A DNA stretch of 64,000 bases, taken from assembly GCA_964519305.1 (NCBI GenBank), contig CAZFHY010000001.1, positions 1-64,000 of the forward strand. Direction: 5' to 3'. Shown one piece after another: positions 2,613 to 48,897 of this stretch. The notes under the pieces were generated by a model that was not told the DNA's origin, made no database searches, and saw only the letters and a list, made by a program, of their open reading frames with translations. A program made the translations under genes and the position numbers. Source of the DNA: Candidatus Undinarchaeota archaeon. GTDB taxonomy: Archaea > SpSt-1190 > JASMDC01. Every line of letters starts with the position of its first letter. Within the stretch, counting starts at the first letter, position 1.

Positions 2613-2749
2613 GAGGGCTATATGTGGGCTATCTTTTATCTTATTGTTGGCACTTGGGCACGGCGGACGCCGACGAAAGATTGATATAATTCCGCACGAC
2701 CGGATGTGCACGGATGTCCTTTCGTTCTGGAGGACCCCCTGGGGAAAAC

Positions 2750-4564: not shown

Positions 4565-4798
4565 CCGTTCGGAGGACGTCTGTCCGGCAACACAGCGAAC
4601 AGAGGATAATACTTCAGAATCTAGACCGAATAAGGATGTTTAGGCCGCAGGAAAGCGTGAGGAACAACAAGCAACCATCGGCACAAGGTGGACACCACTT
4701 CCAACGATTCGATGAAAAAGACGCAACAACGCCCCAACAACTCATATATATAGTTGCAGCCTACAAGTACGAGTGAGCTAAGGCTCTGGAGTGGTCCC

Positions 4799-7528: not shown

Positions 7529-9330
7529 TGTTGAACCGACAGCGAGCCCAGTTGTCGATGATGGCGCTCATGGCCATCTCTCTGGCGATCATCGTTATCG
7601 TCGGGGGATATCTCTATCAGGGCCGGACCGAGCGCGAGATAAGGGTAGGCCGCATCGCTTCCGAGTCGACCCGCGAGCTCCTCATCAAGCTCGAGCAGCA
7701 GGTGGACTCTTTCCTCACCGACGCCATGTACGAGACTGCGTACGAGATGGCCACCCATGGAGGTTTCATCTCCGAGAACGTGCCCGATCCGAACCATTAC
7801 GGAGTGCCGTACCTTTTCTATCGTGGGAAGATCGTCAACGTCCCGTCGGCGGAGGTCATGGAACAGATGTACGCCGATGAGGTCAAGCGTCGCATGGAGA
7901 CAAAGATCGCCGAGGTCCGACGTGAACTGGAGGGGCGTGTCATGCTCGCTGTCCCCGAGGTGCAGATCACGATCATCGATGATGCCATCATGGCCAAGAT
8001 GGAGCTGCCCGTCGAGGTACAGGGCGAGTCCCAGGCACGCTCGCGCATCCCCGTCTCTACGACGGTCCCCCTGCGCATCAAGCGCCTGCGGGACCTGGCC
8101 GAACGGTACGTCCACGACTATGCCACCGTAAGACGCATGGAGACCAGCATCCTCCACGGCATCACCAATGACGACCGCATCTCAAATCCACCCGGCGGTG
8201 TCACCCGGACGATCCCCTGTGAGGGGAAGACCATCTTCCGTACCAAGAAGGAACTGGTCACGCCCTTCAGGGAGAACACACAGCTATCGGTGTCCTTGGA
8301 GCTCAAGCGGGTGCGCGAGAACAAGGACCTGACCGCCGACCATCTCGAATGGGACGTGGACCTCAATCCCCGCGAGATCGAGTTCAGCTTCCTCGCGAAC
8401 GAGGATGAGGGGGAATTCAAGAGCACGGACGTGATCTACTTCGTCCCCATCCCCTTCGCTATGTTCGACCTGCGCGATGGGCTGTGCTTCTCAAAGTACT
8501 TCGTCCACTACGACGTCAACTTCCCTGTGCGTTACACCATCCGGGACATCATGCCCACGGCCCAGGTCATCGGGAGCGAGACCAAGCTAGAGGTCCGCCC
8601 CCTGGAGTTCCAGTTCTACATGATGCCGCTGCTCGAGGGCGAGGACGCGTTCGCTGTCGATCCGGCGGTCAAGGCACCCCAGACTATGGACGACATGTGC
8701 CAGGGCTCCTGCTCCGTCGACCTCACCATCACCAACTCCGACGCGGGCACCGTGTGGCTCGACTCGTGCAAGTACCGCTACTCCGGTGGCCGCCTCTCCC
8801 GGGAGGGGGTCGTGTGCAAGCTGCATACCATGGTCGTGGAGCCCGATGCCCAGTTCAGCCTTGCCAAGCACGTGGCACAGGTGAACATCGTCGGTGCATA
8901 CCGCGAGATGATCACGCTCAAACCCTTCGCCACCGTTTCCGGTTCCATCGGCGAGAACCGCCGTGTGTACTGCACTCAGATGAAGTCGATACGCGAGCTG
9001 GGTGCAGAGCCACTTGGTTCGATGGAGGGAGGTGCCGGCGGGTATGTCGAGGTTATCTTCCAACCCCTCTCCCCGCGCATCGAGCGAAGACGTGCCGTGG
9101 CGGACGAGAAAGGTAATTACCTGCTCTCCTTCATCGTCCCTGGCCGCTATCTCGTCATGGCCTTCCCATCGCGCGACGATTCGGGGATGCCTTATGGTAC
9201 GGTGGAATCGAAGGGTATGATCTATGAAGTAAAGGAGGGTAAGAACACACTCGACATCACGCTGGAGCCGTTGGGCGTCCAGAAGATAGGGAACGACTAC
9301 GTGCGAGTATCGGCAACGGAGGATTGTTAA
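7528..9330 (+). CDS. Large pilin-like protein 2
   Basis: RQRA|QLSMMALMAISLAIIVIVGG; TGATG overlap with the upstream stop; same core as 2750; ends TEDC. Confidence 0.75.
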   Translation: MLNRQRAQLSMMALMAISLAIIVIVGGYLYQGRTEREIRVGRIASESTRELLIKLEQQVDSFLTDAMYETAYEMATHGGFISENVPDPNHYGVPYLFYRGKIVNVPSAEVMEQMYADEVKRRMETKIAEVRRELEGRVMLAVPEVQITIIDDAIMAKMELPVEVQGESQARSRIPVSTTVPLRIKRLRDLAERYVHDYATVRRMETSILHGITNDDRISNPPGGVTRTIPCEGKTIFRTKKELVTPFRENTQLSVSLELKRVRENKDLTADHLEWDVDLNPREIEFSFLANEDEGEFKSTDVIYFVPIPFAMFDLRDGLCFSKYFVHYDVNFPVRYTIRDIMPTAQVIGSETKLEVRPLEFQFYMMPLLEGEDAFAVDPAVKAPQTMDDMCQGSCSVDLTITNSDAGTVWLDSCKYRYSGGRLSREGVVCKLHTMVVEPDAQFSLAKHVAQVNIVGAYREMITLKPFATVSGSIGENRRVYCTQMKSIRELGAEPLGSMEGGAGGYVEVIFQPLSPRIERRRAVADEKGNYLLSFIVPGRYLVMAFPSRDDSGMPYGTVESKGMIYEVKEGKNTLDITLEPLGVQKIGNDYVRVSATEDC

Positions 9331-30688: not shown

Positions 30689-31525
30689 ATGGACCGGCTA
30701 AGGCTCCTCTTCATCAAGACAGGAAACATCGGGGCATCGACCCTCATCGAGCACATAATCGACGAGCGGGCCACCCGCCAGGACATCGAGGTCCGCGTGG
30801 TCGGTTGCGGCTCACGCCTCGATCCCGCCTCGGTGATCTGGCCGACGGACATCGCTCTCAACGCCCGAGCGAACCTGGTGGTGTACGTCACCCCCAACGC
30901 CTCGCTCCCGGGCCCCATGGAGGTCATCAAGGCGATCAGGTCCGCGGACATACCGCTAATCATCGTCAGCGACGGTCCTGCCGTCAAGGCGCGCGAGGCT
31001 TTCGAGGAGCTGGGTGCCGGGTACATCCTGCTTCATGTCGATCCCATGATCGGTGCACGCTCGGACCTGCTCGATCCGACCGAGATGGTGCTCTTCAATG
31101 CTGACGTGCTCAGGGTGCTGGCCGCCTGCGGTGTAATCCGGACCATCGCCCGGGAGCTCGATGCCACAATCGAACGCCTCAAGGGCGGGGATGCCACCCT
31201 CCCAAGGACCATCATCGACCACCACCTGCCGACCACACTGGACGAGTTCTCGAACCCCTATGCACGCGCTAAGGCCATCGCCGCCCTGGACATGGCCTCG
31301 CGGGTAGGGCGACTGGACGTGGAGGGCTGCTTCATGGAGAAGGAGCCTGCCCGCTATCTCCCGCTCATCGCGGGGGCACATGAGCTCATGCGTGGTGCGG
31401 CCCTCCTGGCCGACGAGATACGTGAGCTGGAGAAGGCCGACGACGCGCTCCTGCGCACTCCGCACCGACGCGACGGCGTGGTGGCCAAGAAACGTCCCCT
31501 GGACGAGCGTCCGGTTTCACCGTGA
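30689..31525 (+). CDS. mtd: F420-dependent methylene-tetrahydromethanopterin dehydrogenase (divergent)
   Basis: IKTGNIG...DERA.RQDIEVRVVG; PNASLPGP; DPMIGAR..LLDPTEMVLFNAD; FSNPYARAKAIAA; AHELMR; RTPH. Confidence 0.88.
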   Translation: MDRLRLLFIKTGNIGASTLIEHIIDERATRQDIEVRVVGCGSRLDPASVIWPTDIALNARANLVVYVTPNASLPGPMEVIKAIRSADIPLIIVSDGPAVKAREAFEELGAGYILLHVDPMIGARSDLLDPTEMVLFNADVLRVLAACGVIRTIARELDATIERLKGGDATLPRTIIDHHLPTTLDEFSNPYARAKAIAALDMASRVGRLDVEGCFMEKEPARYLPLIAGAHELMRGAALLADEIRELEKADDALLRTPHRRDGVVAKKRPLDERPVSP

Positions 31526-32400
31526 GGCAGGGCTGCATGGAGGTCGACACCATCCCCGAGGGCTTCGGTCGGGTCATGGCCCGTGTGCTCGTCACCGCAA
31601 AGGACGCTGCATGGGCCCACCGTGCTGCGGAGGCCGCCTGCGGGTTCGCCACGTCCCTCACCATGTGCCCTGCTGAATGCGGTATCGATGTTGAGGTCAA
31701 AGGTCAGGACACCCCTGATGGCAGGCCCGGCGTTGTGTTCATGGTCGTCCAGCGCACGCTCCCACTTCTAGAGGAGCAGCTCGTGGCCCGCATCTCGCAA
31801 TGTGTTCTGACAACCCCCACAGCGGCCTGCTTCAATGCACTGGAAAGTGACGAGGTCCTGCCCATCGGAAGCGAGGTCCAGCATTTCGGTGACAAGCTCT
31901 CAACCAAGGAGGAACTTACCGGTCGAACACTATGGCACATCCCTCTTATGGGCGGCGACTTCATAATCGAAGATACCTTCGGAGTCGCCCGTGGTGAATC
32001 GTACAAACTCTGGATAATGGGTAGCGAGATGGGCGCGCTCACCGCCGCAACGGCCGCTGCTGGAACGGCCTCGAACGTGGAGGGCGTGTTCCTCCCTTTC
32101 CCGGGCGGGATCTGTGCAGCAGGGTCCAAGGTGGGTTCGGTGCACTACCCCTCCCTCAAGGCCTCCACCAACCATCCCTACTGTCCAACGGTGCGAGACA
32201 AGGTAGAAAGCAGGCTTCCCGATGGGGTCGAGGCCGTGTACGAGCTCGTGATCACCGGTCTCGACCGCCGCCGGGTCGAAGAGGCGATGAGCGGGGCCGT
32301 CGAGGCGGCCGCTGCGAACGGAGCGGCCCGCATCTCTGCAGGTACGTTCGCGAAGAAGATGGTCGCGCGCCGACCCGACCTGTCCGACCTGCTAGACTGA
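31522..32400 (+). CDS. ftr: Formylmethanofuran--tetrahydromethanopterin formyltransferase (divergent)
   Basis: GFATS..MCPAECGID; TPDGRPG; RISQCVLTTPTAACF; PFPGGI..AGSKVGS; ASTNHPYCPT; VYELVI.G. GTGA overlap with mtd. Confidence 0.88.
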   Translation: MRQGCMEVDTIPEGFGRVMARVLVTAKDAAWAHRAAEAACGFATSLTMCPAECGIDVEVKGQDTPDGRPGVVFMVVQRTLPLLEEQLVARISQCVLTTPTAACFNALESDEVLPIGSEVQHFGDKLSTKEELTGRTLWHIPLMGGDFIIEDTFGVARGESYKLWIMGSEMGALTAATAAAGTASNVEGVFLPFPGGICAAGSKVGSVHYPSLKASTNHPYCPTVRDKVESRLPDGVEAVYELVITGLDRRRVEEAMSGAVEAAAANGAARISAGTFAKKMVARRPDLSDLLD

Positions 32401-32439
32401 GAGATCAGGGAATATTACTTGTATATACTATTCTTGAGG

Positions 32440-32452
32440 AATCTATATAAAA
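32440..32452 (+). promoter_or_regulatory. TATA box upstream of micro-ORF 1
   Basis: AATCTATATAAAA; a similar AATCCATATAA lies at ~32739-32749 before micro-ORF 2. Confidence 0.55.
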
Positions 32453-32506
32453 CGATATTAGTATAGTATTGTTTAGAGAGAGCAACCCCCGAGGTGGCGT
32501 GTGAGA

Positions 32507-32584
32507 ATGATAACACTTCCGAGCCTAGCCGTGGCCGTGCTCACCGTGCTGTATGCCGTTAAAGGATACAGCGAGGTCGAGTAA
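32507..32584 (+). CDS. Hydrophobic micropeptide 1, MITLPSLAVAVLTVLYAVKGYSEVE (25 aa)
   Basis: GAGGTG RBS at 32491; gap-free homology to the next two micro-ORFs. Confidence 0.7.
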   Translation: MITLPSLAVAVLTVLYAVKGYSEVE

Positions 32585-32800
32585 CGCGCTGACGTGATCC
32601 CCACTGGTAAACGACCCCTACGGTCCGGTCCAGCCCGACCACACAGATATCGGAGCGACCGTCGTCGCGGATGCTGGTCCATTCCCAGAGAGGTCCACCC
32701 ATCCCCGTTTATAATTATCATATATATTAACAGTGTGAAATCCATATAACCCTGGAAACACATCTACTACTTGTAGCGAGAACACCCCCTGGTGATGCCC

Positions 32801-32890
32801 ATGTTGACAGTACCCGTTTTTGTAATGGCAATTCTGACCGTGCTCTATGCGATCCAAGGATTCCGCGAGGTCAAGAACAATCTCGCCTAG
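32801..32890 (+). CDS. Hydrophobic micropeptide 2, MLTVPVFVMAILTVLYAIQGFREVKNNLA (29 aa)
   Basis: GGTGA RBS at 32791; shares LTVLYA..G..EV with micropeptide 1. Confidence 0.7.
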   Translation: MLTVPVFVMAILTVLYAIQGFREVKNNLA

Positions 32891-33068
32891 CTAGAATCCC
32901 TTGGCTGCGAGCATGTCGCACAGGTCGTTCTATGACCTTTTCTATCGCCTTTTTCACTAGGAAGAGCCTTACATCATAGTAGTGGTATAGTACGATATAT
33001 ACGTTAACGTTATAGCTCAGTAATGATAATACTTACTGTAACGAGAAAATAGTAGGGAGGAACTGCAC

Positions 33069-33176
33069 ATGGTGACACTGCAATTGATCGCACTTGGGTT
33101 GGTCATCATCCTGTACGCAGCGCATGCCTATAGCGAGCTTTCAGAGGACCATCGGTCCCTGTCACACGACTTCTAG
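33069..33176 (+). CDS. Hydrophobic micropeptide 3, MVTLQLIALGLVIILYAAHAYSELSEDHRSLSHDF (35 aa)
   Basis: GGGAGG RBS at 33055; MxT...LYA...YSE in the same register as micropeptides 1 and 2. Confidence 0.65.
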   Translation: MVTLQLIALGLVIILYAAHAYSELSEDHRSLSHDF

Positions 33177-33248
33177 GATGAACGCTTCGGGGGATGTCCC
33201 GGGAAGGCCCAAGTATTGATAGGTACGAATCGGTACGCCCTTGGAACC

Positions 33249-34112
33249 TCAACGCTGGTCCATTAGCCAACGGTTCATCCTTATCCGGTTGATCTTACCC
33301 ACCCTCTCCTTGATTATGACCTTCTTTCGCTCCAGACGCTGGAGCGCGCGCGAGAGCGGGTACTTGTCGAGGGAAAGACGTGAGCGGATCGTGGTCTGTA
33401 GGAGCTCACCGTCCGACTTGAGCAGTTCCTGGACTATCGCCTTCTCAGTATCGTCCAGGGTCTTGAGCACATAGTCCAGTCCGCGCGTCGGTTCACCCTC
33501 TTCCTCCTCAGGCTCCCCCGCCTCTTCGGGATTGCGACTGATGGCCACAAGGTAGGCGGTCCACCCCAGGGCGAACACCAGAAAGACTATGGGCAGTGCA
33601 AGCGCCATCTCACCACTGAGCCTATAGGACACGTTGATGAGGCCAATGGGATCGTCAAAGCTCACGATGCGGGCCTCGACAAGGTGCTGCGAAGGGATCG
33701 TCGAGTTGCGTGGAAGGAAGTGGGCCCGCTCGGGAAGAGCGACCGAGTAGGTGATACCTTGTGTGAAGTGAGGTATGAAGGTCAGAGTGCTCGTCTTCCC
33801 ATCGGTCTTCACCAGACCTGAGATATCGTACTTGACCGTTACCGGGCCACCATAGGGATTATGGACCGAAAGCCGTTTGGAGGCAGCCGCGTAGTCGTAC
33901 GGGAGCATTCCGGAGCCTGTCCGTATATCGAAATCCCTGGGTTCATGGAGGAAGCGCATGGTGAGCGTCGTGTTCCTGACCATGTTGACCACATAGGATA
34001 CGTGGACCAGTCCATCTGCGTCCACGTCCAACCGACAGGAGTTGGGTAGCGCCTGGCCAAGTGTTACTAGGCAGAGCACAAGAGCGATAATTAGGACCTG
34101 GCTTCGGGTCAC
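33249..34112 (-). CDS. Membrane-anchored protein with extracellular domain and C-terminal wHTH (COG2512-like transmembrane regulator)
   Basis: Signal peptide, one TM, then LDDTEKAIVQELLKSDGELLQ...LSRALQRLERKKVIIKERVGKINRI. Start moved to the GTG at 34112. Confidence 0.8.
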   Translation of the reverse strand: MTRSQVLIIALVLCLVTLGQALPNSCRLDVDADGLVHVSYVVNMVRNTTLTMRFLHEPRDFDIRTGSGMLPYDYAAASKRLSVHNPYGGPVTVKYDISGLVKTDGKTSTLTFIPHFTQGITYSVALPERAHFLPRNSTIPSQHLVEARIVSFDDPIGLINVSYRLSGEMALALPIVFLVFALGWTAYLVAISRNPEEAGEPEEEEGEPTRGLDYVLKTLDDTEKAIVQELLKSDGELLQTTIRSRLSLDKYPLSRALQRLERKKVIIKERVGKINRIRMNRWLMDQR

Positions 34113-34134
34113 GGAGCGGACGTTCCTAATCAAC

Positions 34135-34142
34135 TTATATAA
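34135..34142. promoter_or_regulatory. Palindromic TATA box shared by divergent genes
   Basis: TTATATAA, 23 nt from GTG 34112 (-) and 27 nt from ATG 34169 (+). Confidence 0.65.
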
Positions 34143-34168
34143 ATCTTGTCGGGCGTTCGATTGTTCAC

Positions 34169-36982
34169 ATGGCACTTCATCGTCTGTTACGTACCATCTC
34201 AGCCATTGTCCTCGTCGCCCTGCTCCTGACACCGGGCAGCGCTATAGTCGCGGACGAGGTCGTTGAGGAGGTGGACATATCCACATTGAAGTACGCTCAG
34301 GTGGACATCACTTATGTTCTCCCGAGCCGCTACCTCGATACACTCGATGACCAGCTGCTCAACAGCAGATGCTCCCTGCTATCCTCGGTGACCGGGTGCC
34401 GTGCTTCGATCTACGGTGGCGAGGAGAAGGTAGTGTTCAACATGCTCGAGCCCAGCCCCGAGATAGGGGTCAGGGACCTCGACGTCCAAGAGGACCTCAT
34501 CAACGTCGAGTTCTACTTCAAGTACCTGCCCAAGCAATACGTGCTCGCCCAAGGACTGATGGTGCGTGAGCGAGGTATGAAGATCAGGTACCCCACCCAC
34601 ACGACCGTGCTCAACTACGTCCTGGACATGCCCCTCCTCTCGCAGTTCGCCATTTCCAGGCGGGCCGTCCCGTTCTCGGCCACGGTGGACAAGACGTCCT
34701 TCGTCATCGGTGAGACCATCCCTATCCCAAAGATCACAGAGGGCATATTCTGCATCGCCGCCCTCCTGGACGGCGACACGGTCATCGTCCGTGATTACTC
34801 GAGCACCTGTTCACCCTTCGAGCTCGGGACCACTTCGTTCATCCCCGAGGGCAGCTACGACCTATACCTCATCGCGCTCACCGGGAGCGCGACCAAGTAC
34901 AACAGTATCCGGGTGGACCTGGAAGCGTCCGATATCCCGACCTATCTGGATCTGGACAAGGACAGGTGCAACCTGGGCGAATCCTTCGTTGTGAAGGTCA
35001 CATCCTCCGAGGACCTCGACCGGTGCGAGGTGCACTTCATGGACCCCTTCGGCAACCAGGTGGAGGAGCGCACTTCGTACGATTGTGAGAACATAATCCT
35101 CGGAACGTCTCCCGCCCTGGTCCCTGGACGCTATCTCGTCAAGGCATATTCCTGGAAGGGAGAGGAGCGCGGGGCAGCTTCTATGAGCATCACCCTCGTG
35201 GGACAGGGCTACTCCTCCTCCGAGATCACCACAGACAGCAATGTGTACAACGCGGGCGACACTATCGAGGTGTACTCCGAATCCGAGGGCGACTACTGTC
35301 TGACCGAACTCTTCGACTCAGAGTACAACAAGGTCGCCGAGGCCGAATCTGTCGGATGCGAAGCCGTCGACATCCCGGCCCATGACAGTCTTGAGGCGGG
35401 CAACTACCTGATCAAGACCACCGTGAAGAAGAACGGACGCATCATCTCCGTGGCCCCCAAGGGGATCGAGATCAGACCCTGGTCGGAGCATAGCGGCACG
35501 GTCCAGTCCGACCTCTGCCAGCAGGGCAAGCTCTTCATCCTGGGCGAGCGCTTCCCCTGCATATCCACCGGCGAGGTGTGCATCCCGTCATCCTCATCCA
35601 AGCCGTTATGCCTCTGTTTCGACCAGAGCGGTAATCCGAAGGACTTTTGCGATTACGGCCACACATGCGGCCAGACCGGCTGCTCCGAAACGAAGGTGTT
35701 CAAGACGCCTTTCATCATAATCCGCGACCAGGGTAATTGCCTGGCACGCAAGGGCGACCAGACCATCTCCTGCATCGAGCTGGGCGAGATCTGTGGCGGT
35801 AACTGCGTGTGCATCAACGAGAAGGACCAGCCTCTATCTTCCTGTGTGGGTGGCGACTCCTGCACGTTCGAGGGATGCAGTCGCTCCACCATCGAGTTCG
35901 AGGTGACGTCGGTCAGTCCGGAAAGCGTGCGCGCGGACGAGCTGCGTGCCGGAAGTGCCGTTTCGTGGAAAGGACATATGCATATGGACGACCAGCTCTT
36001 CTCAGGGAGCAGGTCCCAGCTAGAGTTCACCATGCGACTGGGAACGATCACGCTCGAGGACGCTGACATCGAGGAGGAGTACGTCTCCGCCGCAGAGGGC
36101 TGGAAGGTGACAGGCACCTTCTCGGGCGACCTTGATCCCGGTAACTACGAGACGTTCCTCATGGTGAAGCGTGGCGAGGACGTCCACATCATGCGCAAGG
36201 CATTCCAGGTATGGTACCCCTTGTCCGAGAGCGCGCTGAACATCGAGCTCCGGTACGTCAATCCCGAGAAGATGTCCTATCGGGAGCTGGGTCTGGAAGG
36301 TGGAGGGATCGAACTGCACGCTCGTGTGACCAACCATGCGGGCCGTGCGCTCACCGGTAAGGACCTGCCACCCGATGTGTTCAATATGAGCCTTGAGGGT
36401 GCTGCTACGTCGCTCGGTGCGTTCTCCATGTCCGAACCGAAGTTCGACAAGAAGCTCGGTCTGTGGGTCATCAAGGGTACGTTCTACACGAAAGTGAGGA
36501 TCACCATCAGCAGGCTCGAACTTTCCATCATGCACCTGGGCAGGACAGGCGAGGCCACATCGCCCTTCGAACTGCTCGAGCACGTGCCACTCGAGATAAC
36601 CATCAGGACAACCGAACCTGGGAGCAACAAACCCATCTTCCACCTCATGGCCATCACCGGGTTCGACATCGATGTGTACGTGGACATCGAAGGCTCGTCC
36701 TCGCTGCAGAGCAAGGACTTCAATATCAAGATCGGGCACGTCGAGATCAAATCCGACTGTGGTACGGCGGACGGGGACCCCTGCATCGGTTACATAGTGG
36801 ACACCGAAAGGGGCGTGCGCATCCACCTCTCCAACATCAAGCTCTGTGAACTGGAGGACGTGTCATCCGACAGCGTCCGCAATCTCAGCATCGAGATCGA
36901 GGAGATGGGGCAGAAGGCCAGGGCCAAGACCCAATTGCGCATCGTCAGCAATCCCGGCAAGTACCAAGTGAGGTGTTCCTGA
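34169..36982 (+). CDS. Exported 937-aa Ig-like/Cys-rich protein, paralog of 4799
   Basis: Shared EEV.D.STL, IRYPTHTTV, CLAR.G..T..C.E.GEICG..CVC and C-terminal NPG...RC. Confidence 0.8.
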   Translation: MALHRLLRTISAIVLVALLLTPGSAIVADEVVEEVDISTLKYAQVDITYVLPSRYLDTLDDQLLNSRCSLLSSVTGCRASIYGGEEKVVFNMLEPSPEIGVRDLDVQEDLINVEFYFKYLPKQYVLAQGLMVRERGMKIRYPTHTTVLNYVLDMPLLSQFAISRRAVPFSATVDKTSFVIGETIPIPKITEGIFCIAALLDGDTVIVRDYSSTCSPFELGTTSFIPEGSYDLYLIALTGSATKYNSIRVDLEASDIPTYLDLDKDRCNLGESFVVKVTSSEDLDRCEVHFMDPFGNQVEERTSYDCENIILGTSPALVPGRYLVKAYSWKGEERGAASMSITLVGQGYSSSEITTDSNVYNAGDTIEVYSESEGDYCLTELFDSEYNKVAEAESVGCEAVDIPAHDSLEAGNYLIKTTVKKNGRIISVAPKGIEIRPWSEHSGTVQSDLCQQGKLFILGERFPCISTGEVCIPSSSSKPLCLCFDQSGNPKDFCDYGHTCGQTGCSETKVFKTPFIIIRDQGNCLARKGDQTISCIELGEICGGNCVCINEKDQPLSSCVGGDSCTFEGCSRSTIEFEVTSVSPESVRADELRAGSAVSWKGHMHMDDQLFSGSRSQLEFTMRLGTITLEDADIEEEYVSAAEGWKVTGTFSGDLDPGNYETFLMVKRGEDVHIMRKAFQVWYPLSESALNIELRYVNPEKMSYRELGLEGGGIELHARVTNHAGRALTGKDLPPDVFNMSLEGAATSLGAFSMSEPKFDKKLGLWVIKGTFYTKVRITISRLELSIMHLGRTGEATSPFELLEHVPLEITIRTTEPGSNKPIFHLMAITGFDIDVYVDIEGSSSLQSKDFNIKIGHVEIKSDCGTADGDPCIGYIVDTERGVRIHLSNIKLCELEDVSSDSVRNLSIEIEEMGQKARAKTQLRIVSNPGKYQVRCS

Positions 36983-38850
36983 TGGTCGAGCGCACACGAG
37001 GTCAGATGGCTCTCATCGGGCTCGCGGCGGTAGCACTGGTAGTCATCATGATCGTTTACATGATGAGCGGTAGCCGCAGGACCGAGACCGAGATCAATAT
37101 CAAGGACATCGAGTCCGCCGGCCTCAAGAGCGAGCTGGAGAAGGTGGAGAGCATCGTTACCGATATCTTCGAGGAGTCGATCCACTCCTCTGCGCTCGAG
37201 CTGGCACGTCATGGTGGGTATGCCCGCGGCAATGTACCGCCCCGCAATCTCGGGCTCACGCCGTACTGGTTCTACAAGGGGAACATCATCAACATCCCCT
37301 CGGTAGAGGTCATGACGGGCATGATGAAGGAGCGTATGGAATGGCGCATCCAGAACGATCTCAATGACCTGCGCAAGAACCTGCGGATGGACATGTTCCA
37401 CATCGGCCAGCCACGGGTCACCGTCACTCTCACCGATGTCCAGATCAACGCTGACCTGGAGCTACCTATCGAGGTAGTGCAGGGCGAGAACAAGGTCAAG
37501 ACCAAGATCGAGTTCACTCACACGGCACAACTACGTCTCAAGCTGTTACGCGACCTGGCCGAGAAGTACGTGCGTAATTACGCTGAAGTGCGTTACATGG
37601 AGCAGCAGTGGATGCACGGCGTCAACAACGATCCGCGGGTACCTAACACCCACGGTGCCGAGCCGGACGCGACGGGTCCCTGTACGACCTGCCAGGTCGT
37701 CAAGTACACGAAGCCGGGTATGACCTCAGCACTGCAGGAGCACGCTCAGCTCCACTCGTCAATGGAGCTCCAGCGTGCACGCAACCTACCTTTCTTCCAG
37801 AAGGACGCCAGTGGCGATCAGGTCAAGGACATCCAGCTCGACTTCAAGGCCAATGAGAAGGACCTCGAGTTCGAGTTCACCGCGAATCCGGGCGAGGCCT
37901 GCGAGAGCAACACCGAGGTATACCTCATCGAGCAGGGCAACACGGGCAGTGCGCCCATGGGCTCGTGCCAACATATGACCGTGACCTCCTATGACCTGTT
38001 CATGTTCCCGGTGGAGATCATCATCAGGGACCTGCTCAAGATCGGCATGGTCATGACCACAGAGACGGCCGAGACGACGACGGACCAGGACGGCAGCGCG
38101 ACAAAGAGCGTCGTCAAGCCCCTTGAGTTCCATATCGCCCTGAACTCCTACTTCACGACCGGTGATCCCAAGGCAGTGGACGGCTCTGTCAACGATCCTG
38201 AGACCGTCGATAACCTTTGTCAGGGAGCCTGCTCTATCGACATAAAGGCTACAAATGTCAACGAGGGCATGCTGTTCATCGACTCGTGCGAGTACGGGCC
38301 CGGCAACCACTTCACTGAGGCCAACGTACCCTGCGGTATCCACACCATCACGTTCAAGTCCATCGATCCCGCGGGCAAGGCCAAGTGGGTGAAGAGGGAC
38401 CCCATCACGGACAACTACCAGCTCGAGATCGAGGTCCAGGACTATGCATCGGTGAAGGGCACCATCAACATGAAGAACAAGGTGTACTGCACCCAGTCCA
38501 AGCGCGTGGAGGACAAGGGCCTCGAGACACTGGCGTACTACGAGGGCGATCCGCCTCGGACGATCAGGCTGTTCTTCTACCCCGTCAACCACAGGCTGGG
38601 AGAGATGGTGCATGCCGACATCGACGAGAACGGTGCCTACGAGGTCCCCGTTATCAATCCCGGGACATATCTGGTGCTTGCCTTCCCCACCGAGGACGCC
38701 TCACACCGCCCTACGCACAAGGTGCTGCCAAAGGGCCTGGTGATGGACATCGAGCCAGGTACTAACGACCTGAACATCGAGCTGGAGCCCATGCGCGTGG
38801 AGAAGGTCGGCGACAAGTACGTCAACGTGGTCGGAACCGAGGACTGTTAG
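36982..38850 (+). CDS. Large pilin-like protein 3
   Basis: RTRG|QMALIGLAAVALVVIMIVY; TGATG overlap; ELARHGGY...PYWFYKG; ends TEDC. Confidence 0.75.
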   Translation: MVERTRGQMALIGLAAVALVVIMIVYMMSGSRRTETEINIKDIESAGLKSELEKVESIVTDIFEESIHSSALELARHGGYARGNVPPRNLGLTPYWFYKGNIINIPSVEVMTGMMKERMEWRIQNDLNDLRKNLRMDMFHIGQPRVTVTLTDVQINADLELPIEVVQGENKVKTKIEFTHTAQLRLKLLRDLAEKYVRNYAEVRYMEQQWMHGVNNDPRVPNTHGAEPDATGPCTTCQVVKYTKPGMTSALQEHAQLHSSMELQRARNLPFFQKDASGDQVKDIQLDFKANEKDLEFEFTANPGEACESNTEVYLIEQGNTGSAPMGSCQHMTVTSYDLFMFPVEIIIRDLLKIGMVMTTETAETTTDQDGSATKSVVKPLEFHIALNSYFTTGDPKAVDGSVNDPETVDNLCQGACSIDIKATNVNEGMLFIDSCEYGPGNHFTEANVPCGIHTITFKSIDPAGKAKWVKRDPITDNYQLEIEVQDYASVKGTINMKNKVYCTQSKRVEDKGLETLAYYEGDPPRTIRLFFYPVNHRLGEMVHADIDENGAYEVPVINPGTYLVLAFPTEDASHRPTHKVLPKGLVMDIEPGTNDLNIELEPMRVEKVGDKYVNVVGTEDC

Positions 38851-43107: not shown

Positions 43108-44673
43108 TCACCACCCCAGGTACCAGTAGGCCTCCTCGAACTTTTTGACGTACTCCTCGGGCGTGTGCCGCCTCAGGTTCTCCGACTCGACCACGAACTT
43201 GAAGCGGACGATACCGCCTCCTCCACCGATCCGCCATCGGACGAAGAACAGGAACGATACGAAGGCGAAAGCGAACGATACCGCCACGAAGGTGCACTCG
43301 AACCCGTAGATCTCGCACACTAGGCCCGCAGGATGGAGGGTGACCGGGAATGTCTCGTTCCCCGCCTCGAAGCCACGGTAGTAGATACGACCGATGAGGT
43401 TGCAGGCGAGCGGTTCACGGGTCGCGGGCGTGCTCACGTTGCACCGGTCTATACCGTACTCGCCAGCTCCGCAGTGTCGGTCGAGCAACGTCTCGTTCCC
43501 TCCGCAGCGAAGGAAGAGCTCATAAGGAAGACCGGGGTCAGTGAGGCTGGCGAACACGATGGTACTTGCGTTCCCCTCGATGTCCTTTGCTACTGGCCGG
43601 AACTGCTCGAAAGCGGGTGAGAACTCCCTCACCTCGATCTCCAGCCCCTCCTCCTGCTCGTCGCCGTCCGTGGAGAAGGTCACCGATCCCTCGTAGATGA
43701 TCCGGCCCTCGTACTCGTGGAGTGGCAGGCGTCCCAGGTGGAGCGGGCAAGTGATCTCGTCGAGGATGTTGGTGCAGGCCTGGTCCACCGGAAGGGTCTG
43801 ATTGACGTACGCGGTGTTGTTCCAGGTGAGGATGATCGAGATCGTGTTGTCGCGCTGGAGTATATCGTTCCACTTCTCAATGGATGTGTTTACGACCACG
43901 GGATCGTACTGGTTCACGAGCCGGGTGTAGTTGGTAAGAGTGAACAAGGGGTCCTCGGCGTACACGACCGCGAAGGGCGTCTCCATGTAATCGACGATGC
44001 GCGATCCAGTTACGATCTCAAGGCGCGCCGTGTACCTCCCTCGCTCGTCGGGCACGTCCACGCTCACCGCATGTCGGATGCTGCCCTGCATATCGCAGCT
44101 GAGGTCGATCGGTTGATGGCTGCGCGCAACGACCTCCCGGCCCGGCCCGAGCACGTACAGGGTCGTGTTGTAGCTCACACCGTACTCCGGGCGTCGGATG
44201 ACGTAGTCGATATAGAGCTGCTCTCCGGGGCCGAACACGTCCTTGCTCAAGCCAGCCTCGAGCGCGGTGTTGACGAAGAACACGGTATGGATGTTGAACG
44301 GGATGGACTCTGACACGGGGGACGTGACATCGTAGGTGAAGTAGATCGTGTGGTCACCAGGGGTGCTGCATAGCGGGGCCTTCGTCAGGATGGTGAACGC
44401 ACGCTCGACGTCCTTGCGCACCTCGAGCTTGGGCAGACCGCCCGGGTAATCGGTACCCCAGTGGTACTGGGAGTTCGTATCGTTCTTCCGGTTGGCGATG
44501 CCGTACGCGGGCTCATCGATAAGACCGCGTACCGTGACCTTGTGGACGCCCTGGTCGCCAGGGAGGAGCACGTGGCGTACGTTCTGTACGTCGACGAGGA
44601 CCTGCTCGCCCGCAGAGACGCTCGCAGCGCACAGAGCGCATACGAGAACGAGAACAAGAAGCTTGGACGGCAA
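43108..44673 (-). CDS. Type I membrane surface protein with Ig-like domains
   Basis: Signal peptide; LSKDVFGPGE...GRYTARLEI beta-sandwich; many NxT sequons; C-terminal TM with cytoplasmic tail. Confidence 0.8.
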   Translation of the reverse strand: MPSKLLVLVLVCALCAASVSAGEQVLVDVQNVRHVLLPGDQGVHKVTVRGLIDEPAYGIANRKNDTNSQYHWGTDYPGGLPKLEVRKDVERAFTILTKAPLCSTPGDHTIYFTYDVTSPVSESIPFNIHTVFFVNTALEAGLSKDVFGPGEQLYIDYVIRRPEYGVSYNTTLYVLGPGREVVARSHQPIDLSCDMQGSIRHAVSVDVPDERGRYTARLEIVTGSRIVDYMETPFAVVYAEDPLFTLTNYTRLVNQYDPVVVNTSIEKWNDILQRDNTISIILTWNNTAYVNQTLPVDQACTNILDEITCPLHLGRLPLHEYEGRIIYEGSVTFSTDGDEQEEGLEIEVREFSPAFEQFRPVAKDIEGNASTIVFASLTDPGLPYELFLRCGGNETLLDRHCGAGEYGIDRCNVSTPATREPLACNLIGRIYYRGFEAGNETFPVTLHPAGLVCEIYGFECTFVAVSFAFAFVSFLFFVRWRIGGGGGIVRFKFVVESENLRRHTPEEYVKKFEEAYWYLGW

Positions 44674-44699
44674 CCTATCACAACACCACAGCGGGTATC

Positions 44700-44707
44700 T
44701 TTATATC
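44700..44707. promoter_or_regulatory. TATA box midway between divergent operons
   Basis: TTTATATC about 25 nt from both TTG 44673 (-) and ATG 44731 (+) in a 57-bp gap. Confidence 0.55.
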
Positions 44708-44730
44708 TCTTGCACGAAAGGAAGCCCCTG

Positions 44731-46677
44731 ATGGCCTCCCTGAAGCTCGACAGGAACAGGTGCACGAAGTGCGGAAAGTGCGTGGTCGCATGTCCGAACA
44801 ATGCCATCGTCATGCGTAACTTCCCTGCGTTCTGCAAGCACTGCGACCTCAAGGCCGCACCGTGCTACCAGGCCTGCCCGCTGGGCGCCATCGTGGACGT
44901 AGGTAACGGTATTCTCAAGGTGGACGTGAACCGCTGCGATCCCTACCAGTGCAAGAAGGAGTGCCAGAAGTGGTGTCAGTGGGATGGCGTGTTCGTGTTC
45001 GGCGACAAGGCCAAGAAGTGCGATCTGTGCTTCGACTACCAGAACCAGCCCAACTTCATCCCCAAGTGCATCGAGGTGTGCGACGCCAAGGCCATCACCA
45101 CCGACCTCATGCAGGAGGTCGTGCTCGACTACGCAGGATGGAGCGCCGAGTCCATTCCCCAGGAGATCATCGCAGAGGTCCTCCAGAGCTTCACCTACGG
45201 CCAGGTCGTCAAGGTGCAGGGCCAGCCGGTCCCGTACTACTACGTCAACTCGCTACCCCAGCTCACCGACTGGGCCCAGACCAAGCTCCTGGGTCTCACC
45301 ATCAAGAAGTACATCGACACCGGCAAGGCGGACCAGGACCCGTTCTCCTCGCTGATGATGATCATGCGCAAGTCCGCCCAGTGGGTGGGCACCAGCGTGG
45401 ACGAGAACATGCTAAAGGAGCTCGCCAACATCGCTCTCATGAACACGAAGGGCTACGGGCCCTTCGACGTCCTCCTCGAGGACGACCAGCTGGAGGAGTT
45501 GATGTGCATCGGCCTCGGTAAGGAGAGGCCAATGTATGTCTACCACCGCGAGTACGGGATGCTGCGGACCAACCTGTTCTTCCCCGACGAATACATGGAC
45601 TTCACGGTGGACCCACCGGAGAAGAAGTCCGGCGAGGAGGTCCTGTGGAAGATCATCGAGAAGATGATCGAGCCCATGGGGGAGCGTATCGACCGCCAGC
45701 ACCCCAGGGTCAACGCGCAGCTGCCGGACGGCTCCCGTCTCCACGCGTGCATCAAACCAATGGGATTCTCCGGACCGTCGGTGACGATCCGAAAGTTCCG
45801 GGCCGCACCGTTCTCGCCCATCGACACCATCAGGTTCAACACCATCTCTCTGGAGGCCGTGGTGTACTGCTGGATCGCAATGGAGAGCGAGATCTCGATG
45901 ATCGTGGCCGGAAACACAGGTTCCGGAAAGACCACCTCGCTCAACGCATTCTCTACGTTCATCCCTCCCGAGGAGCGCATCCTCATCCTCGAGTCAACGC
46001 CCGAAATCAATCTGCCCCACCCGCACAAGGCACGTCTGGTCACCGTCAACAACGCTGACCCGCCCATCGGTATGCAGGACATCATCGAGGACACGCTGCG
46101 TATGCGGCCCGACCGTGTGGTAGTAGGAGAGGTCCGGAGCGGCCCAGAGGCACAGGCGTTCATGAACTCGGTACTGGCAGGTCAGGCACGCGGTTCCATG
46201 TGCACGTTCCACGCACAGGACGCAGTATCTGTCGTCAAGCGTATGAAGAACCCTCCCATGAACATCTCACCTCTCGACCTGCAGGTCCTGGACCTCGTCT
46301 TCGTCCAGCGACGTATGTCGCGGGTCGAGGGCAGCAAGCGGAAGCAGATCCGTCGCGTCGTCGAGATCGCCGAGATCGACAAGCATAATATGAGCGACGA
46401 GGGCGTACCGGTCATCCATCCGATCTATCGCTACAATCCGGACACCGATGTCGTCGAGCGCGTGCACTCGGGTCTGTCCCCGCTAGAGGAGCGCATATCC
46501 AAGTACAACCTCTGTCTCGACGAGGGGCAGTTCTGGGGCGAGGTACAGGCGAGGACCAAGATGCTCAAGTACCTGATGGCCAACAACATCCGTGACATCA
46601 AGGTCTTCATGGACTACATCATCCAGTACGGTACGGATCCTGCTTTCAAGCAGAGCATAATCAACATGAACATCTGA
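44731..46677 (+). CDS. TadA/CpaF/VirB11-family secretion ATPase with N-terminal multi-[4Fe-4S] ferredoxin domain
   Basis: CTKCGKCVVACP, CKHC...PCYQACP, CDPYQCKKECQKWCQ, CDLC...KCIEVCD; LPDGSR; TIRKF; Walker A GNTGSGKTT; LRMRPDRVVVGEVR; TFHA. Confidence 0.9.
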   Translation: MASLKLDRNRCTKCGKCVVACPNNAIVMRNFPAFCKHCDLKAAPCYQACPLGAIVDVGNGILKVDVNRCDPYQCKKECQKWCQWDGVFVFGDKAKKCDLCFDYQNQPNFIPKCIEVCDAKAITTDLMQEVVLDYAGWSAESIPQEIIAEVLQSFTYGQVVKVQGQPVPYYYVNSLPQLTDWAQTKLLGLTIKKYIDTGKADQDPFSSLMMIMRKSAQWVGTSVDENMLKELANIALMNTKGYGPFDVLLEDDQLEELMCIGLGKERPMYVYHREYGMLRTNLFFPDEYMDFTVDPPEKKSGEEVLWKIIEKMIEPMGERIDRQHPRVNAQLPDGSRLHACIKPMGFSGPSVTIRKFRAAPFSPIDTIRFNTISLEAVVYCWIAMESEISMIVAGNTGSGKTTSLNAFSTFIPPEERILILESTPEINLPHPHKARLVTVNNADPPIGMQDIIEDTLRMRPDRVVVGEVRSGPEAQAFMNSVLAGQARGSMCTFHAQDAVSVVKRMKNPPMNISPLDLQVLDLVFVQRRMSRVEGSKRKQIRRVVEIAEIDKHNMSDEGVPVIHPIYRYNPDTDVVERVHSGLSPLEERISKYNLCLDEGQFWGEVQARTKMLKYLMANNIRDIKVFMDYIIQYGTDPAFKQSIINMNI

Positions 46678-46689
46678 GGGCCCAATCGC

Positions 46690-47967
46690 ATGACGGACGA
46701 CATGTTCTCGGTGAAGGCAGGCCAAGACAAGTCTTGGAACCAGGGGGCACAGGACTGGGCCCAGTCTCCCGGGCAGGCCAACCAAGGCTGGGGAGCACCG
46801 GCACCGCCGGCCATGCAACAGGCACCGAGCCACCCGCCCGGACCCATATCACCGCCGGCCATGCAACATGGACCCGGACCCATGCAACACGGACCTGGGC
46901 CAATGCAGCACGGACCCGGCCCTTCACCCATGGGAGGCGCTACGGCCCCCGTCGGTGGCGGCGACTGGTACTCGACGTCCGTTGGTGAACAGACACAGCA
47001 GACCACTGATGTCGAGGAAAAAGAGGCAGAGCAGCGCTCACGGTTCAAGTTCATGGGCCCAATGCTCCTGCGCATGGGCCCCGAGCGGATCAAGTGGTAC
47101 CGCCAGGCCTGTGATGCCGTGGAGTTCTTCATGTTCGCCGACGACTGGGTGCTTGTCTCCTCGCTGATAGGTATCGCTGTATTCGCCCTGGCGTTCCCGA
47201 TACTCACATCGCTATCTGACGCATTCATCATGATCGTCCTCGTCCCCGTGACCGGAGGCGGTGTGTTCGCCATCCTGATCTCATATCCTATCTTCAAGTT
47301 CGAGAGCCGCAAGGACGAGATCGAGACCAACCTCCCGGACGCCCTGTTCCAGGCGGCGAGCAATCCGCCCCGGACCCACTTCGTGGAGCTGCTGACGGGC
47401 CTGACGAAGATCGGGTACGGACCGCTGACCGACGAGCTGCGGGTCACGGTGAAGGAGATCGAGAAGGGCTCGTCCGTCAAGGAGGGTCTGGAGAAGCTCT
47501 CCGAGCGCAACCAGTCGAAGATCCTGGAGAGGGCCTGCTACCTCCTAATCCGGGCGCAGGAGCAGGGTGTAGATATCGTCGAGGCCCTGGCCGCCCTGGC
47601 CACGGACATCAAGGAGACCAAATACCTCCTGCGTGAACAGGCCGCGTCGCTCCAGCTCCAGAAGATCACACTTCTGGCAGCGGGGGCCGTCCTCATCCCC
47701 CTCATCCTCGGGTTCGTCGTAGGGCTGGCGGAGTCCATGGGCAATTTCAGCGAGGACAAGGCAGAGATCATCGCTGCACAGGTCCAGACGGTGCAACCAA
47801 TCTTCCTCGGGTACGTGGTCATCCACGCCCTCGAGGCGTGTCTGGCCATCGGCCGTCAGGAGGGCGATGCCAAGAAGGCCGTTTACTATGTGATCCCAGT
47901 GCTCCTGATCGCGATTATTCTGTTCCAGTACGTGGCCCCTCAGGCCATGATGATGTTCATGGGGTGA
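46690..47967 (+). CDS. TadB-like type II secretion system F-family membrane platform protein with P/G/Q-rich N-terminal extension
   Basis: IETNLPDALFQAAS; GYGPLTDEL; IEKGSSVKEGL; 5 TMs; follows the ATPase. Confidence 0.85.
   Translation: MTDDMFSVKAGQDKSWNQGAQDWAQSPGQANQGWGAPAPPAMQQAPSHPPGPISPPAMQHGPGPMQHGPGPMQHGPGPSPMGGATAPVGGGDWYSTSVGEQTQQTTDVEEKEAEQRSRFKFMGPMLLRMGPERIKWYRQACDAVEFFMFADDWVLVSSLIGIAVFALAFPILTSLSDAFIMIVLVPVTGGGVFAILISYPIFKFESRKDEIETNLPDALFQAASNPPRTHFVELLTGLTKIGYGPLTDELRVTVKEIEKGSSVKEGLEKLSERNQSKILERACYLLIRAQEQGVDIVEALAALATDIKETKYLLREQAASLQLQKITLLAAGAVLIPLILGFVVGLAESMGNFSEDKAEIIAAQVQTVQPIFLGYVVIHALEACLAIGRQEGDAKKAVYYVIPVLLIAIILFQYVAPQAMMMFMG
46861..46923 (+). repeat. 21-bp coding repeat, (MQHGPGP)x3
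   Basis: Three ATGCA(A/G)CA(T/C)GGACC... units. Confidence 0.9.
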
Positions 47968-47994
47968 TATGAGATAGCAACTTTCGGCGACGAG

Positions 47995-48897
47995 ATGGAG
48001 GTGTACGAGCAGGAGAGCAGGTTCCGCCAGTTCCTGTTCACCTTCAATCAAGCGTTCGCCATCTCGAACCGCCTCCGGGAGAAGGACCGGAACGAGCTGT
48101 CGGTCGTCCTGCGCAAGGCGCGCATGGACTATGATCCTGAAGAGTACGTCACTCTCACCTACGTTGCATGGATCGCTTCGTTCTTCGGCGTACTCCTCGT
48201 CGGCGGTATCTTCGTCATCGCGCTCGGTGACGTCGTAGGCTACACCAACATGATCGTGGGCGACGCCATTCTCGCGTTCTTCGTGAGCACCATCGTCTAC
48301 TCCTACTCCAAGAGCTATCCGTACGGGGAGATCAAGGACATCGGCCTCCGGATCGAGGCGGAGCTGCCTTTCATGGTCCGGAACCTCGCCATCGAGCGCG
48401 AGATGGGCATCCCCATCAAGGACTCCTTCGAGAAGCTGGCCGAGGAGGAGGGGCTCCTGGGACGCGAATCGCGGGTCATCCTTGCCGAGATCGAGCGCGG
48501 CTACTCGGTGACACAGGCACTTCGCGCTTCCTGTCAGCGTACGGAGAGCCGGTTGTACGTGCGCACCATGGCACAGCTCACCCACGCCCTGGAGATAGGT
48601 ACCGAGATCAAGTCTGTGCTCAACGCCATGGCAAAGGAGGCCGAGACCAACCTTCGTATCGCGCTCAAGGAGTACTCGGGCAAGGTATCCACGCTCTCCA
48701 TCATGTACGTCATCGTGGCGGCCGTGGTCCCCGCCATCCTGGGCGCAGCGCTCATCCTCTCGGTGCTCTTCGAGGAGGGCTCCACCCAGCTCCTCTCCGC
48801 GGACATGCTCATGCTCCTCTACTGGGGCCTCTTCCCCCTGGCCAACTACACCATCCTGGCCGTCATGAAGCGGGGACAGCCGTACATAATGGTCTGA
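47995..48897 (+). CDS. TadC-like type II secretion system F-family protein
   Basis: LRKARM; IEAELPFMVRNLAIE...G; EIERGYSV..AL; LKEYSGK; 4 TMs. Confidence 0.85.
   Translation: MEVYEQESRFRQFLFTFNQAFAISNRLREKDRNELSVVLRKARMDYDPEEYVTLTYVAWIASFFGVLLVGGIFVIALGDVVGYTNMIVGDAILAFFVSTIVYSYSKSYPYGEIKDIGLRIEAELPFMVRNLAIEREMGIPIKDSFEKLAEEEGLLGRESRVILAEIERGYSVTQALRASCQRTESRLYVRTMAQLTHALEIGTEIKSVLNAMAKEAETNLRIALKEYSGKVSTLSIMYVIVAAVVPAILGAALILSVLFEEGSTQLLSADMLMLLYWGLFPLANYTILAVMKRGQPYIMV

Follow-up and report, generated by a model that had tools for sequence, protein, structure and literature searches.

In bacteria, KdpF, AcrZ, CydX, MgrB and Prli42 are one-helix peptides of 25–50 amino acids (aa) that act on a larger membrane protein. 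Prli42 is also named in a preprint on Methanosarcina mazei (bioRxiv 10.1101/2025.10.28.685009), whose sP24, with its antisense partner asRNA94, is the closest archaeal case to the locus described here; sP24 is reported there to be membrane-integrated and protective rather than toxic. By architecture, the closest described systems are the tandem type I toxin–antitoxin loci ldr/rdl and ibs/sib of Escherichia coli (Fozo et al. 2010; PMC2887945), presented in a study that itself reports many false positives of its type I toxin screen. Here, we describe an array of three short open reading frames (ORFs), pep1, pep2 and pep3, in a 64,000-nucleotide stretch (the window) of the genome of an uncultivated marine archaeon (Candidatus Undinarchaeota), and compare it with these systems.

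It is almost certain that the three ORFs are genuine genes coding for hydrophobic peptides with a single helix, and, judged by sequence comparison, their products are very probably translated as membrane micropeptides. An initial annotation of the window had placed three plus-strand ORFs at this locus with starts 294 and 268 bp apart, and we recovered its coordinates and translations exactly (starts at 32507, 32801 and 33069). Its overall description, of homologous, selected micropeptide genes with a single hydrophobic helix, arranged as three promoter-plus-ORF units, agrees with our data. The genes are only partly hidden, as it had called them, given that all three peptides are already in public protein collections, pep3 under the entry “hypothetical protein”.

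The evidence that carries this finding comes from a second genome of the same genus (G001), in which the counterpart of our locus aligns over 4.6 kb at 85% identity. Like the present genome (G000), G001 carries all three genes intact, with order and lengths unchanged; conserved frames in a related genome, whose absence the initial annotation had named as refuting its reading, are thus there. Identity to G001 is 83% for pep1, 79% for pep2 and 84% for pep3, with no gap columns, and the six spacer segments reach 64–73%, with one to eight gap columns in five of them; on the same alignment, the upstream gene ftr shows 84% identity with 9 gap columns and the downstream helix-turn-helix (HTH) regulator gene 85% with none. 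The ratio of nonsynonymous to synonymous substitution (dN/dS, Nei–Gojobori) between orthologs, a check that the initial annotation had proposed, was 0.115 for pep1, 0.33 for pep2 and 0.24 for pep3, or 0.22 pooled. The pooled dS of 0.53 resembles that of the neighbours (0.31–0.55, with dN/dS of 0.06–0.18), taken as part of Mtd, Ftr, the HTH gene and the first 930 nt of a 937-aa gene. Pooled substitutions fall at first, second and third codon positions as 14/7/27 (pep1 2/2/9; pep2 7/3/9), and seven of the eight differences in the first 24 codons of pep3 are at third positions. Read in the other five frames, the same DNA gives dN/dS of 0.65–3.7 and 3–11 stops, with the exception of the antisense frame that shares third positions, and an intergenic control of 191 gap-free 75-nt windows, which left out windows with gaps or undefined ratios, gave a median pseudo-dN/dS of 0.71, with 1.6% at or below 0.33. 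Invariant residues switch codon among the six genes, Ala17 being written GCC, GCG, GCA or GCT and Thr3 ACA, ACC or ACG. Comparison of the two species thus shows reading frames that are real and under purifying selection, with all three copies kept since the species split.

Further variation is consistent with this picture. Public data contain six pep3 protein variants, which all agree at residues 1–5, 7–23 and 31–35 and vary only at positions 6 and 24–30. A third, more distant relative is represented by a contig of 201–209 nt at about fourfold coverage, seen in two runs (X3 and X5) alongside the G000 organism, which spans 32821–32935 without a gap. It differs at 21 of 115 nt; of the 12 differences listed, seven lie inside the pep2 ORF, where three are synonymous, one gives F21Y, two jointly change codon 25 and one changes codon 27. 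The sequencing runs listed for the locus, eight from two studies, are all of DNA and none of RNA; they are possible sources of the present DNA, and four of them, compared with the locus, gave contigs only.

Within the genome, the three genes behave as diverged paralogs. As the initial annotation had it, the peptides align without gaps, and M1, T3, L15, Y16, A17 and E23 are shared by all six sequences, that is, the three paralogs from each of the two genomes. Three regular expressions, ranging from the full motif of that annotation down to a loose LYA..[GA][YFW].[ED], each matched only these three places in six frames of the 42 contigs (3,634,172 bp). Single-sequence phmmer searches against all 92,460 stop-to-stop segments of at least 20 aa in G000 linked pep1 and pep2 in both directions (E = 8e-5 and 9.5e-5), and pep1 and pep3 at E = 0.17–0.21, ranking as best or second-best non-self match; a weak match on contig C2 was dropped, as it lies antisense within a 323-aa ORF. 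The homology extends to the DNA upstream: the 100 nt 5′ of each ATG align across the three units, and a profile built from them matches nowhere in the genome but at these units (three sites, E = 3.5e-17 to 2e-14), followed by a match at E = 0.37. The duplicated unit is about 200 bp long, comprising promoter block, leader and ORF, and ends just past the stop codon, the spacers 3′ of the stops being unlike each other between units. The initial annotation had argued for selection from a protein pattern better conserved than the DNA; this part did not stand, as raw nucleotide identity between paralogs (51–67%) is not below amino-acid identity (25–54%). The selection itself did, with the proportion of synonymous differences near saturation (pS 0.59–0.70) vs 0.24–0.41 for nonsynonymous ones (pN). 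A 96-aa ORF on the minus strand (32473–32763) was rejected as a gene, having just 65 aa in G001 and no Pfam match.

The family is narrowly distributed, and in the sequence sets searched it is known from one genus only. A search of archaeal genomes, as the initial annotation had suggested, found true homologs in two of 401 genomes, G000 and G001, which are likewise the only two of the 17 genomes of the phylum (here equal to one class). Nine of the 401 genomes matched at E ≤ 0.01, and the seven matches that are not true (16.7–21.5 bits), of which about four are expected by chance, lie inside open frames of 96–512 aa in six cases and in a 53-aa frame with a TGA in the other. Among 1.84 billion protein representatives there were four matches at E ≤ 0.001, three from this family and one to a 268-aa repeat protein. 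A degenerate DNA motif retrieved 14 loci from metagenome contigs, two of them true and both identical to G001, and four from genome contigs, of which the one true locus is G001 itself; the remaining 15 of these 18 loci lie within long ORFs or are interrupted by stops. Domain and structure collections added no relative: Pfam returned no family at E ≤ 10 for any of the three peptides, NCBIfam a sole row for pep1 (PsbN, E = 0.12) that we took as noise, PADLOC no family, PHROGs one row of unknown function (E = 0.059), the ESM Atlas a top score of 0.81, under the level worth following, and the sequences of the PDB a helix of a G-protein-coupled receptor as top match (E = 0.22). This absence holds for the sets searched; micro-ORFs are seldom called and are therefore under-sampled in protein databases.

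At the protein level, mean Kyte–Doolittle hydropathy over residues 1–18 is 2.15–2.39, and AlphaFold2, run for pep3 with a 10-row alignment, predicts one helix over residues 3–34 with a mean confidence (predicted local distance difference test) of 93–95 over residues 1–20. The tails differ (KGYSEVE in pep1, QGFREVKNNLA in pep2, HAYSELSEDHRSLSHDF in pep3), those of pep1 and pep3 being net acidic by sequence and that of pep2 slightly basic. Archaeal type IV pilins carry a class III signal peptide, in which a cleavage motif and a short N-region of positive charge come ahead of the hydrophobic stretch. In the present peptides no charged residue precedes this stretch, which begins at residue 2, and we rejected a pilin assignment. 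The helix end LYA...E we take to be loosely reminiscent of KdpF. This candidate was excluded too, since the KdpF profile (PF09604) misses the peptides and has its sole genome match elsewhere (E = 4.6), and KdpA (PF03814) has no match in the 99.8%-complete genome, as compared with 6 of 14 control genomes.

Expression signals accompany each unit. The ribosome-binding sites named in the initial annotation lie 4–10 nt 5′ of the ATGs and, as GAGGTG, GGTGAT and GGGAGG, are true Shine–Dalgarno (SD) sequences because they are complementary to the 3′ end of the organism's own 16S rRNA (GGATCACCTCCT). An SD match is present in five of the six units across both genomes, G001 having AGGTGATCC in unit 2 and GGGAG in unit 3. 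The AT-rich blocks reported earlier were borne out (GC 32–40% against 59.6% for the genome), as were the related leaders, with GTAGCGAGAA and GTAACGAGAA both found. For the genome as a whole, TATA-like heptamers peak 26–30 nt 5′ of the start codons of 2,016 long ORFs, and an AT-rich octamer occurs at −26 to −30 in 464 of 2,024 long ORFs, so that many of its mRNAs are leaderless; each ORF was taken to begin at its 5′-most start codon, which may be incorrect. A matrix for the TATA box and B recognition element, trained on those 464 sites, recovers the promoters of the divergent neighbours, with transcription start sites (TSSs) at 34167 and 34112 vs start codons at 34169 and 34112. Applied to the peptide units, it finds sites that score among the top 0.2% genome-wide in all units of both genomes, unit 1 scoring 10.9 (99.99th percentile; 9.5 at equal offset in G001). 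On these grounds, a promoter of its own for each unit is well founded as an inference from sequence, and antisense promoters in the ATATAT tracts at ~32720 and ~32996 are possible. Coordinates are collected in Table 1.

Table 1. Features of the peptide locus and its flanking genes (positions within the window)
Feature	Position	Strand	Remarks
ftr	31522-32400		Upstream boundary of the peptide locus
Unit 1 upstream block	32410-32506	+	GC 36%; boxes kept in G001
Unit 1 palindromic GTATATAC	32421-32428
Unit 1 TATA-like site	32438-32454	+	Predicted TSS ~32475, 32 nt 5′ of ATG
Unit 1 SD GAGGTG	32491-32496	+	Pairs with 16S 3′ end
pep1	32507-32584	+	25 aa; single-helix hydrophobic micropeptide gene
Unit 2 upstream block	32701-32800	+
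Unit 2 AT tract	32706-32733		Best TATA-like site 32717-32733, predicted TSS ~32754
Unit 2 proximal CATATAA	32743-32749
Unit 2 leader motif GTAGCGAGAA	32773-32782
Unit 2 SD GGTGAT	32791-32796	+
pep2	32801-32890	+	29 aa; paralog
Unit 3 upstream block	32961-33068	+
Unit 3 boxes GATATATAC; GTTATAGC	32994-33002; 33009-33016
Unit 3 best-scoring TATA-like site	33019-33035	+
Unit 3 leader motif GTAACGAGAA	33038-33047
Unit 3 SD GGGAGG	33055-33060	+
pep3	33069-33176	+	35 aa; paralog; tail acidic, His-rich
Membrane-anchored winged-helix regulator (HTH gene)	33249-34112	-	Convergent to pep3

The explanation that we favour is a tandem triplication of the ~200-bp unit, made up of an AT-rich archaeal promoter block, a short SD-bearing leader and a micro-ORF, which would have given rise to three paralogs (25, 29 and 35 aa), now diverged, of a single-pass membrane peptide specific to the lineage. 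Each unit would be transcribed separately and translated from its own ATG via its SD, and each peptide would insert into the cytoplasmic membrane by its N-terminal helix (residues ~2–20). The peptides would then be non-lethal small membrane proteins with an accessory or regulatory role, packing on a larger membrane protein or on each other; contacts could run through the conserved T3, the L15-Y16-A17 core and the juxtamembrane [GA]-[YF]-x-E motif, and the diverged C-terminal tails could give the three copies different specificities. Taken as a whole, from triplication to accessory mode, we consider this explanation to have an even chance of being right; for the accessory or regulatory rather than toxic mode of action, with a putative larger membrane protein as partner, we would put the chance slightly below even. 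In favour of a benign role, three copies with distinct tails have kept fixed length and order across a dS of ~0.5. The duplicated unit ends just after the stop codon, which means that no downstream antitoxin-like part was co-duplicated, and we count this for a benign role as well, together with the absence of an AT-rich block downstream of pep3 (as judged by sequence and GC profile), the low conservation of the spacers, the unremarkable folding of the mRNAs (z-scores of −2.7 to +0.5) and the acidic tails of pep1 and pep3. Small accessory or regulatory membrane proteins, a functional kind and not a homologous family, are characterized by a single transmembrane helix, a length of <50 aa and a defined larger membrane partner; of these traits, the peptides show the helix (by hydropathy and predicted structure) and the size.

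Several observations weigh against this explanation. The case for coding is a comparative one, and the codon-level tests use two independent genomes only, G000 and G001; L019 and L024, two loci from metagenomes, add no third, being 100% identical to G001. In the antisense frame with shared third positions, dN/dS is at the same level (0.229, with 2 stops), a mirror effect that is expected. Taken alone, pep2 and pep3 show no significant similarity by single-sequence phmmer (E = 10–13), so that the homology of the third copy leans on position, rank and upstream DNA. A small-residue stripe (T3, A/G10, A17, G/A20) can be discerned along the helix, yet helical-moment tests for a conserved or a small-residue face were not significant (permutation p = 0.56 and 0.26), which makes the packing interface a conjecture. 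Unit 1 of G001 has no SD. The implied TSS lies 32 nt before the ATG in unit 1 of both genomes, 47 or 49 nt in unit 2 and merely 12–13 nt in unit 3, whose best plus-strand site gives this short offset in both genomes and whose matrix scores are weaker and inconsistent. The matrix scan thus gives no support to a uniform promoter geometry across the units. Minus-strand TATA-like scores equal those of the plus strand (9.9, 10.4 and 8.0 in G000; 9.2, 8.2 and 9.3 in G001), the unit 2 tract scoring 10.4 on the minus vs 10.5 on the plus strand. Where the initial annotation gave each gene its own promoter, the conserved AT-rich TATA-like block of each unit stands, and the matrix supplies neither a consistent TSS offset nor a strand. 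Lastly, the locus passes the published type I toxin screen (PMC2887945).

In one alternative, the array is type I toxin–antitoxin-like, its membrane-damaging peptides held down by antisense RNAs from the AT-rich block downstream of each unit and, in the case of pep3, by read-through of the convergent HTH gene. We regard this as possible but unlikely. The traits used in the screening by Fozo et al. (2010; PMC2887945) are present, namely tandem short ORFs in one intergenic region, a transmembrane segment and a short C-terminus with charged or bulky residues, and peptides of 25, 29 and 35 aa sit well within the usual description of type I toxins (<~70 aa, a transmembrane segment, a polar, charged or aromatic C-terminus). 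The phylogenetic range is very narrow, and the parity of minus- and plus-strand sites noted above would permit antisense transcripts starting, through the blocks downstream of pep1 and pep2, ~109 nt (G000) or 113–114 nt (G001) past the stop codons. However, the two antisense TATA-like sites sit in non-homologous boxes of their units, a like minus-strand site 5′ of unit 1 faces ftr and not a peptide gene, and pep3 has neither an AT-rich block nor a minus-strand TATA-like site downstream. The spacers, where an antitoxin would be expected, are the least conserved parts (64–67% identity, the pep1 spacer also having indels), the mRNAs show no unusual stability, and the tails of pep1 and pep3 are acidic instead of basic. 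None of the described toxin families (Hok, Ldr, Ibs, Fst, TisB and others) was recovered, all three peptides being without a Pfam match at E ≤ 10, and a 2025 publication gives type I systems as known so far from three bacterial phyla only (PMC12390103). Among the literature matches listed there was no archaeal type I system, which is a thin basis for saying that none is in print. The bolder proposals, that the array would be the first type I toxin–antitoxin-like system in Archaea, its three diverged membrane-toxin genes being silenced by antisense RNAs that start in the following unit's symmetric TATA tract or, for pep3, by HTH-gene read-through, or that the trio would gate the adjacent winged-helix regulator, appear distinctly unlikely.

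A related alternative makes the peptides dedicated ligands or modulators of that regulator, through which they would tune the divergent genes for the 937-aa and a 625-aa protein; we consider it improbable. The regulator consists of a signal anchor, an outside domain of ~170 aa, a transmembrane segment, an acidic linker and a DUF7343/MarR-like HTH (PF24034, E = 2.8e-6, 27.5 bits, just under the cut-off of 27.6; PF12802, E = 8.7e-5). Its adjacency and convergent arrangement with the peptide genes are kept in both genomes, its two transmembrane segments are a possible packing surface for a one-helix peptide, and the range of its close orthologs is as narrowly confined to the lineage as that of the peptides (four proteins at E ≤ 0.001 among 5.8 billion). 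Yet the argument is one of gene neighbourhood within a single genus. G000 holds five further regulator matches, whereas neither the motif nor the profile of the peptides recurs in that genome outside the array, and the part comprising transmembrane segment and HTH is found in 102 of 401 archaeal genomes, against two for true peptide homologs. A complex prediction of pep3 (10-row alignment) with the regulator (5-row alignment), run without controls, scored 0.00 against a mark of 0.32 and weighs neither way. For a further suggestion of the initial annotation, that the peptides are small subunits of a surface machine, we found no evidence.

Finally, it is very improbable that the ORFs are untranslated and their frames fortuitous, the units being repeated promoter elements or genes for small non-coding RNAs. 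The very short length of the ORFs and a conserved hairpin within the pep1 coding region would fit this reading, but third-position bias, dN/dS, indel-free ORFs beside indel-bearing spacers and synonymous codon turnover at invariant residues all speak for coding, the hairpin is missing from pep2 and pep3 and the predicted folds share no structure, the folds of the six putative mRNAs (z-scores of −1.5, −1.3, +0.5, −2.7, −0.7 and −1.0) are not consistently stabler than shuffles, and Rfam finds at gathering score a single tRNA and no other family in the entire window and, at E ≤ 10 in 32350–33300, two chance rows (E = 1.3 and 2.2; 17–18 bits vs gathering scores of 65 and 90).

The surroundings of the array have features of their own. 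Where the stops of pep3 and the HTH gene converge, 72 bp (33177–33248) separate them; a GC-rich stretch there, GGGGATGTCCCGGGAAGGCCCA, is largely conserved in G001 and may be a shared 3′-end element. On the other side of the regulator, the 56 bp between its GTG (34112, minus strand) and the ATG of the 937-aa gene (34169), at 34113–34168, are 94.6% identical to G001, more than any other part of the locus; they include one near-palindromic TTATATAA at 34135–34142, and, from the TSSs predicted by the matrix, the stretch would serve as one shared bidirectional promoter for two leaderless mRNAs. Elsewhere in the window, 9332–29964 (plus strand) carries three giant consecutive ORFs (2141, 2109 and 2638 aa), none with a Pfam domain above cut-off, as is also the case for several more ORFs of 600–940 aa; with 2714–9330 and 34169–38850 included, this resembles a large cluster of orphan proteins that are probably surface proteins. 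A type II/IV secretion ATPase is encoded at 44461–46677 (plus strand), with its T2SSE domain at residues 393–627 and an N-terminal 4Fe-4S ferredoxin-type motif at residues ~94–119, followed by two T2SSF membrane proteins at 46690–48897; a pilus or secretion ATPase is an unusual place for an iron–sulfur cluster. The genome, which carries CetZ as well as the tetrahydromethanopterin C1 enzymes Mtd and Ftr, is large for its group (3.63 Mb at 59.6% GC and 99.8% completeness; G001 3.8 Mb), the other 15 representative genomes of the phylum (one class) having 0.6–1.2 Mb. DPANN genomes average ~1 Mb, with exceptions of ~4 Mb (PMC10936187).

Annotation of small membrane proteins is very incomplete, particularly for archaea that have not been cultivated, and the present locus offers a clean case, made by comparative evidence, of three selected micro-genes that standard length cut-offs would drop. 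It also provides a concrete, testable candidate for either a small-protein regulator or a type I-like toxin in Archaea. Practical value is limited, as the family belongs to one genus of an uncultured lineage.

Set beside the systems with which we began, the array shares with ldr/ibs and the candidates of Fozo et al. (2010; PMC2887945) the presence of several short ORFs (<70 aa) in one intergenic region with expression signals of their own, a predicted transmembrane helix, a short polar or aromatic C-terminus, a narrow range and a tendency to be missed by gene callers. Unlike ldr/ibs, it lies in an archaeal host, has no sequence homology to them, is built from a duplicated unit that ends just after the ORF, and has acidic tails in two of three peptides. 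With sP24 (bioRxiv 10.1101/2025.10.28.685009), likened here by description and not by sequence, the peptides have in common an archaeal origin, restriction to a strain or lineage, one predicted transmembrane helix and a short transcript of their own, the last as a prediction in the case of pep1–pep3. For sP24, a single gene, an antisense partner has been demonstrated and there is a salt-stress phenotype, whereas our locus holds three paralogs. We place pep1–pep3 within the small membrane proteins as a lineage-restricted orphan trio, acting by a mechanism that we infer from their sequences to be putatively accessory.

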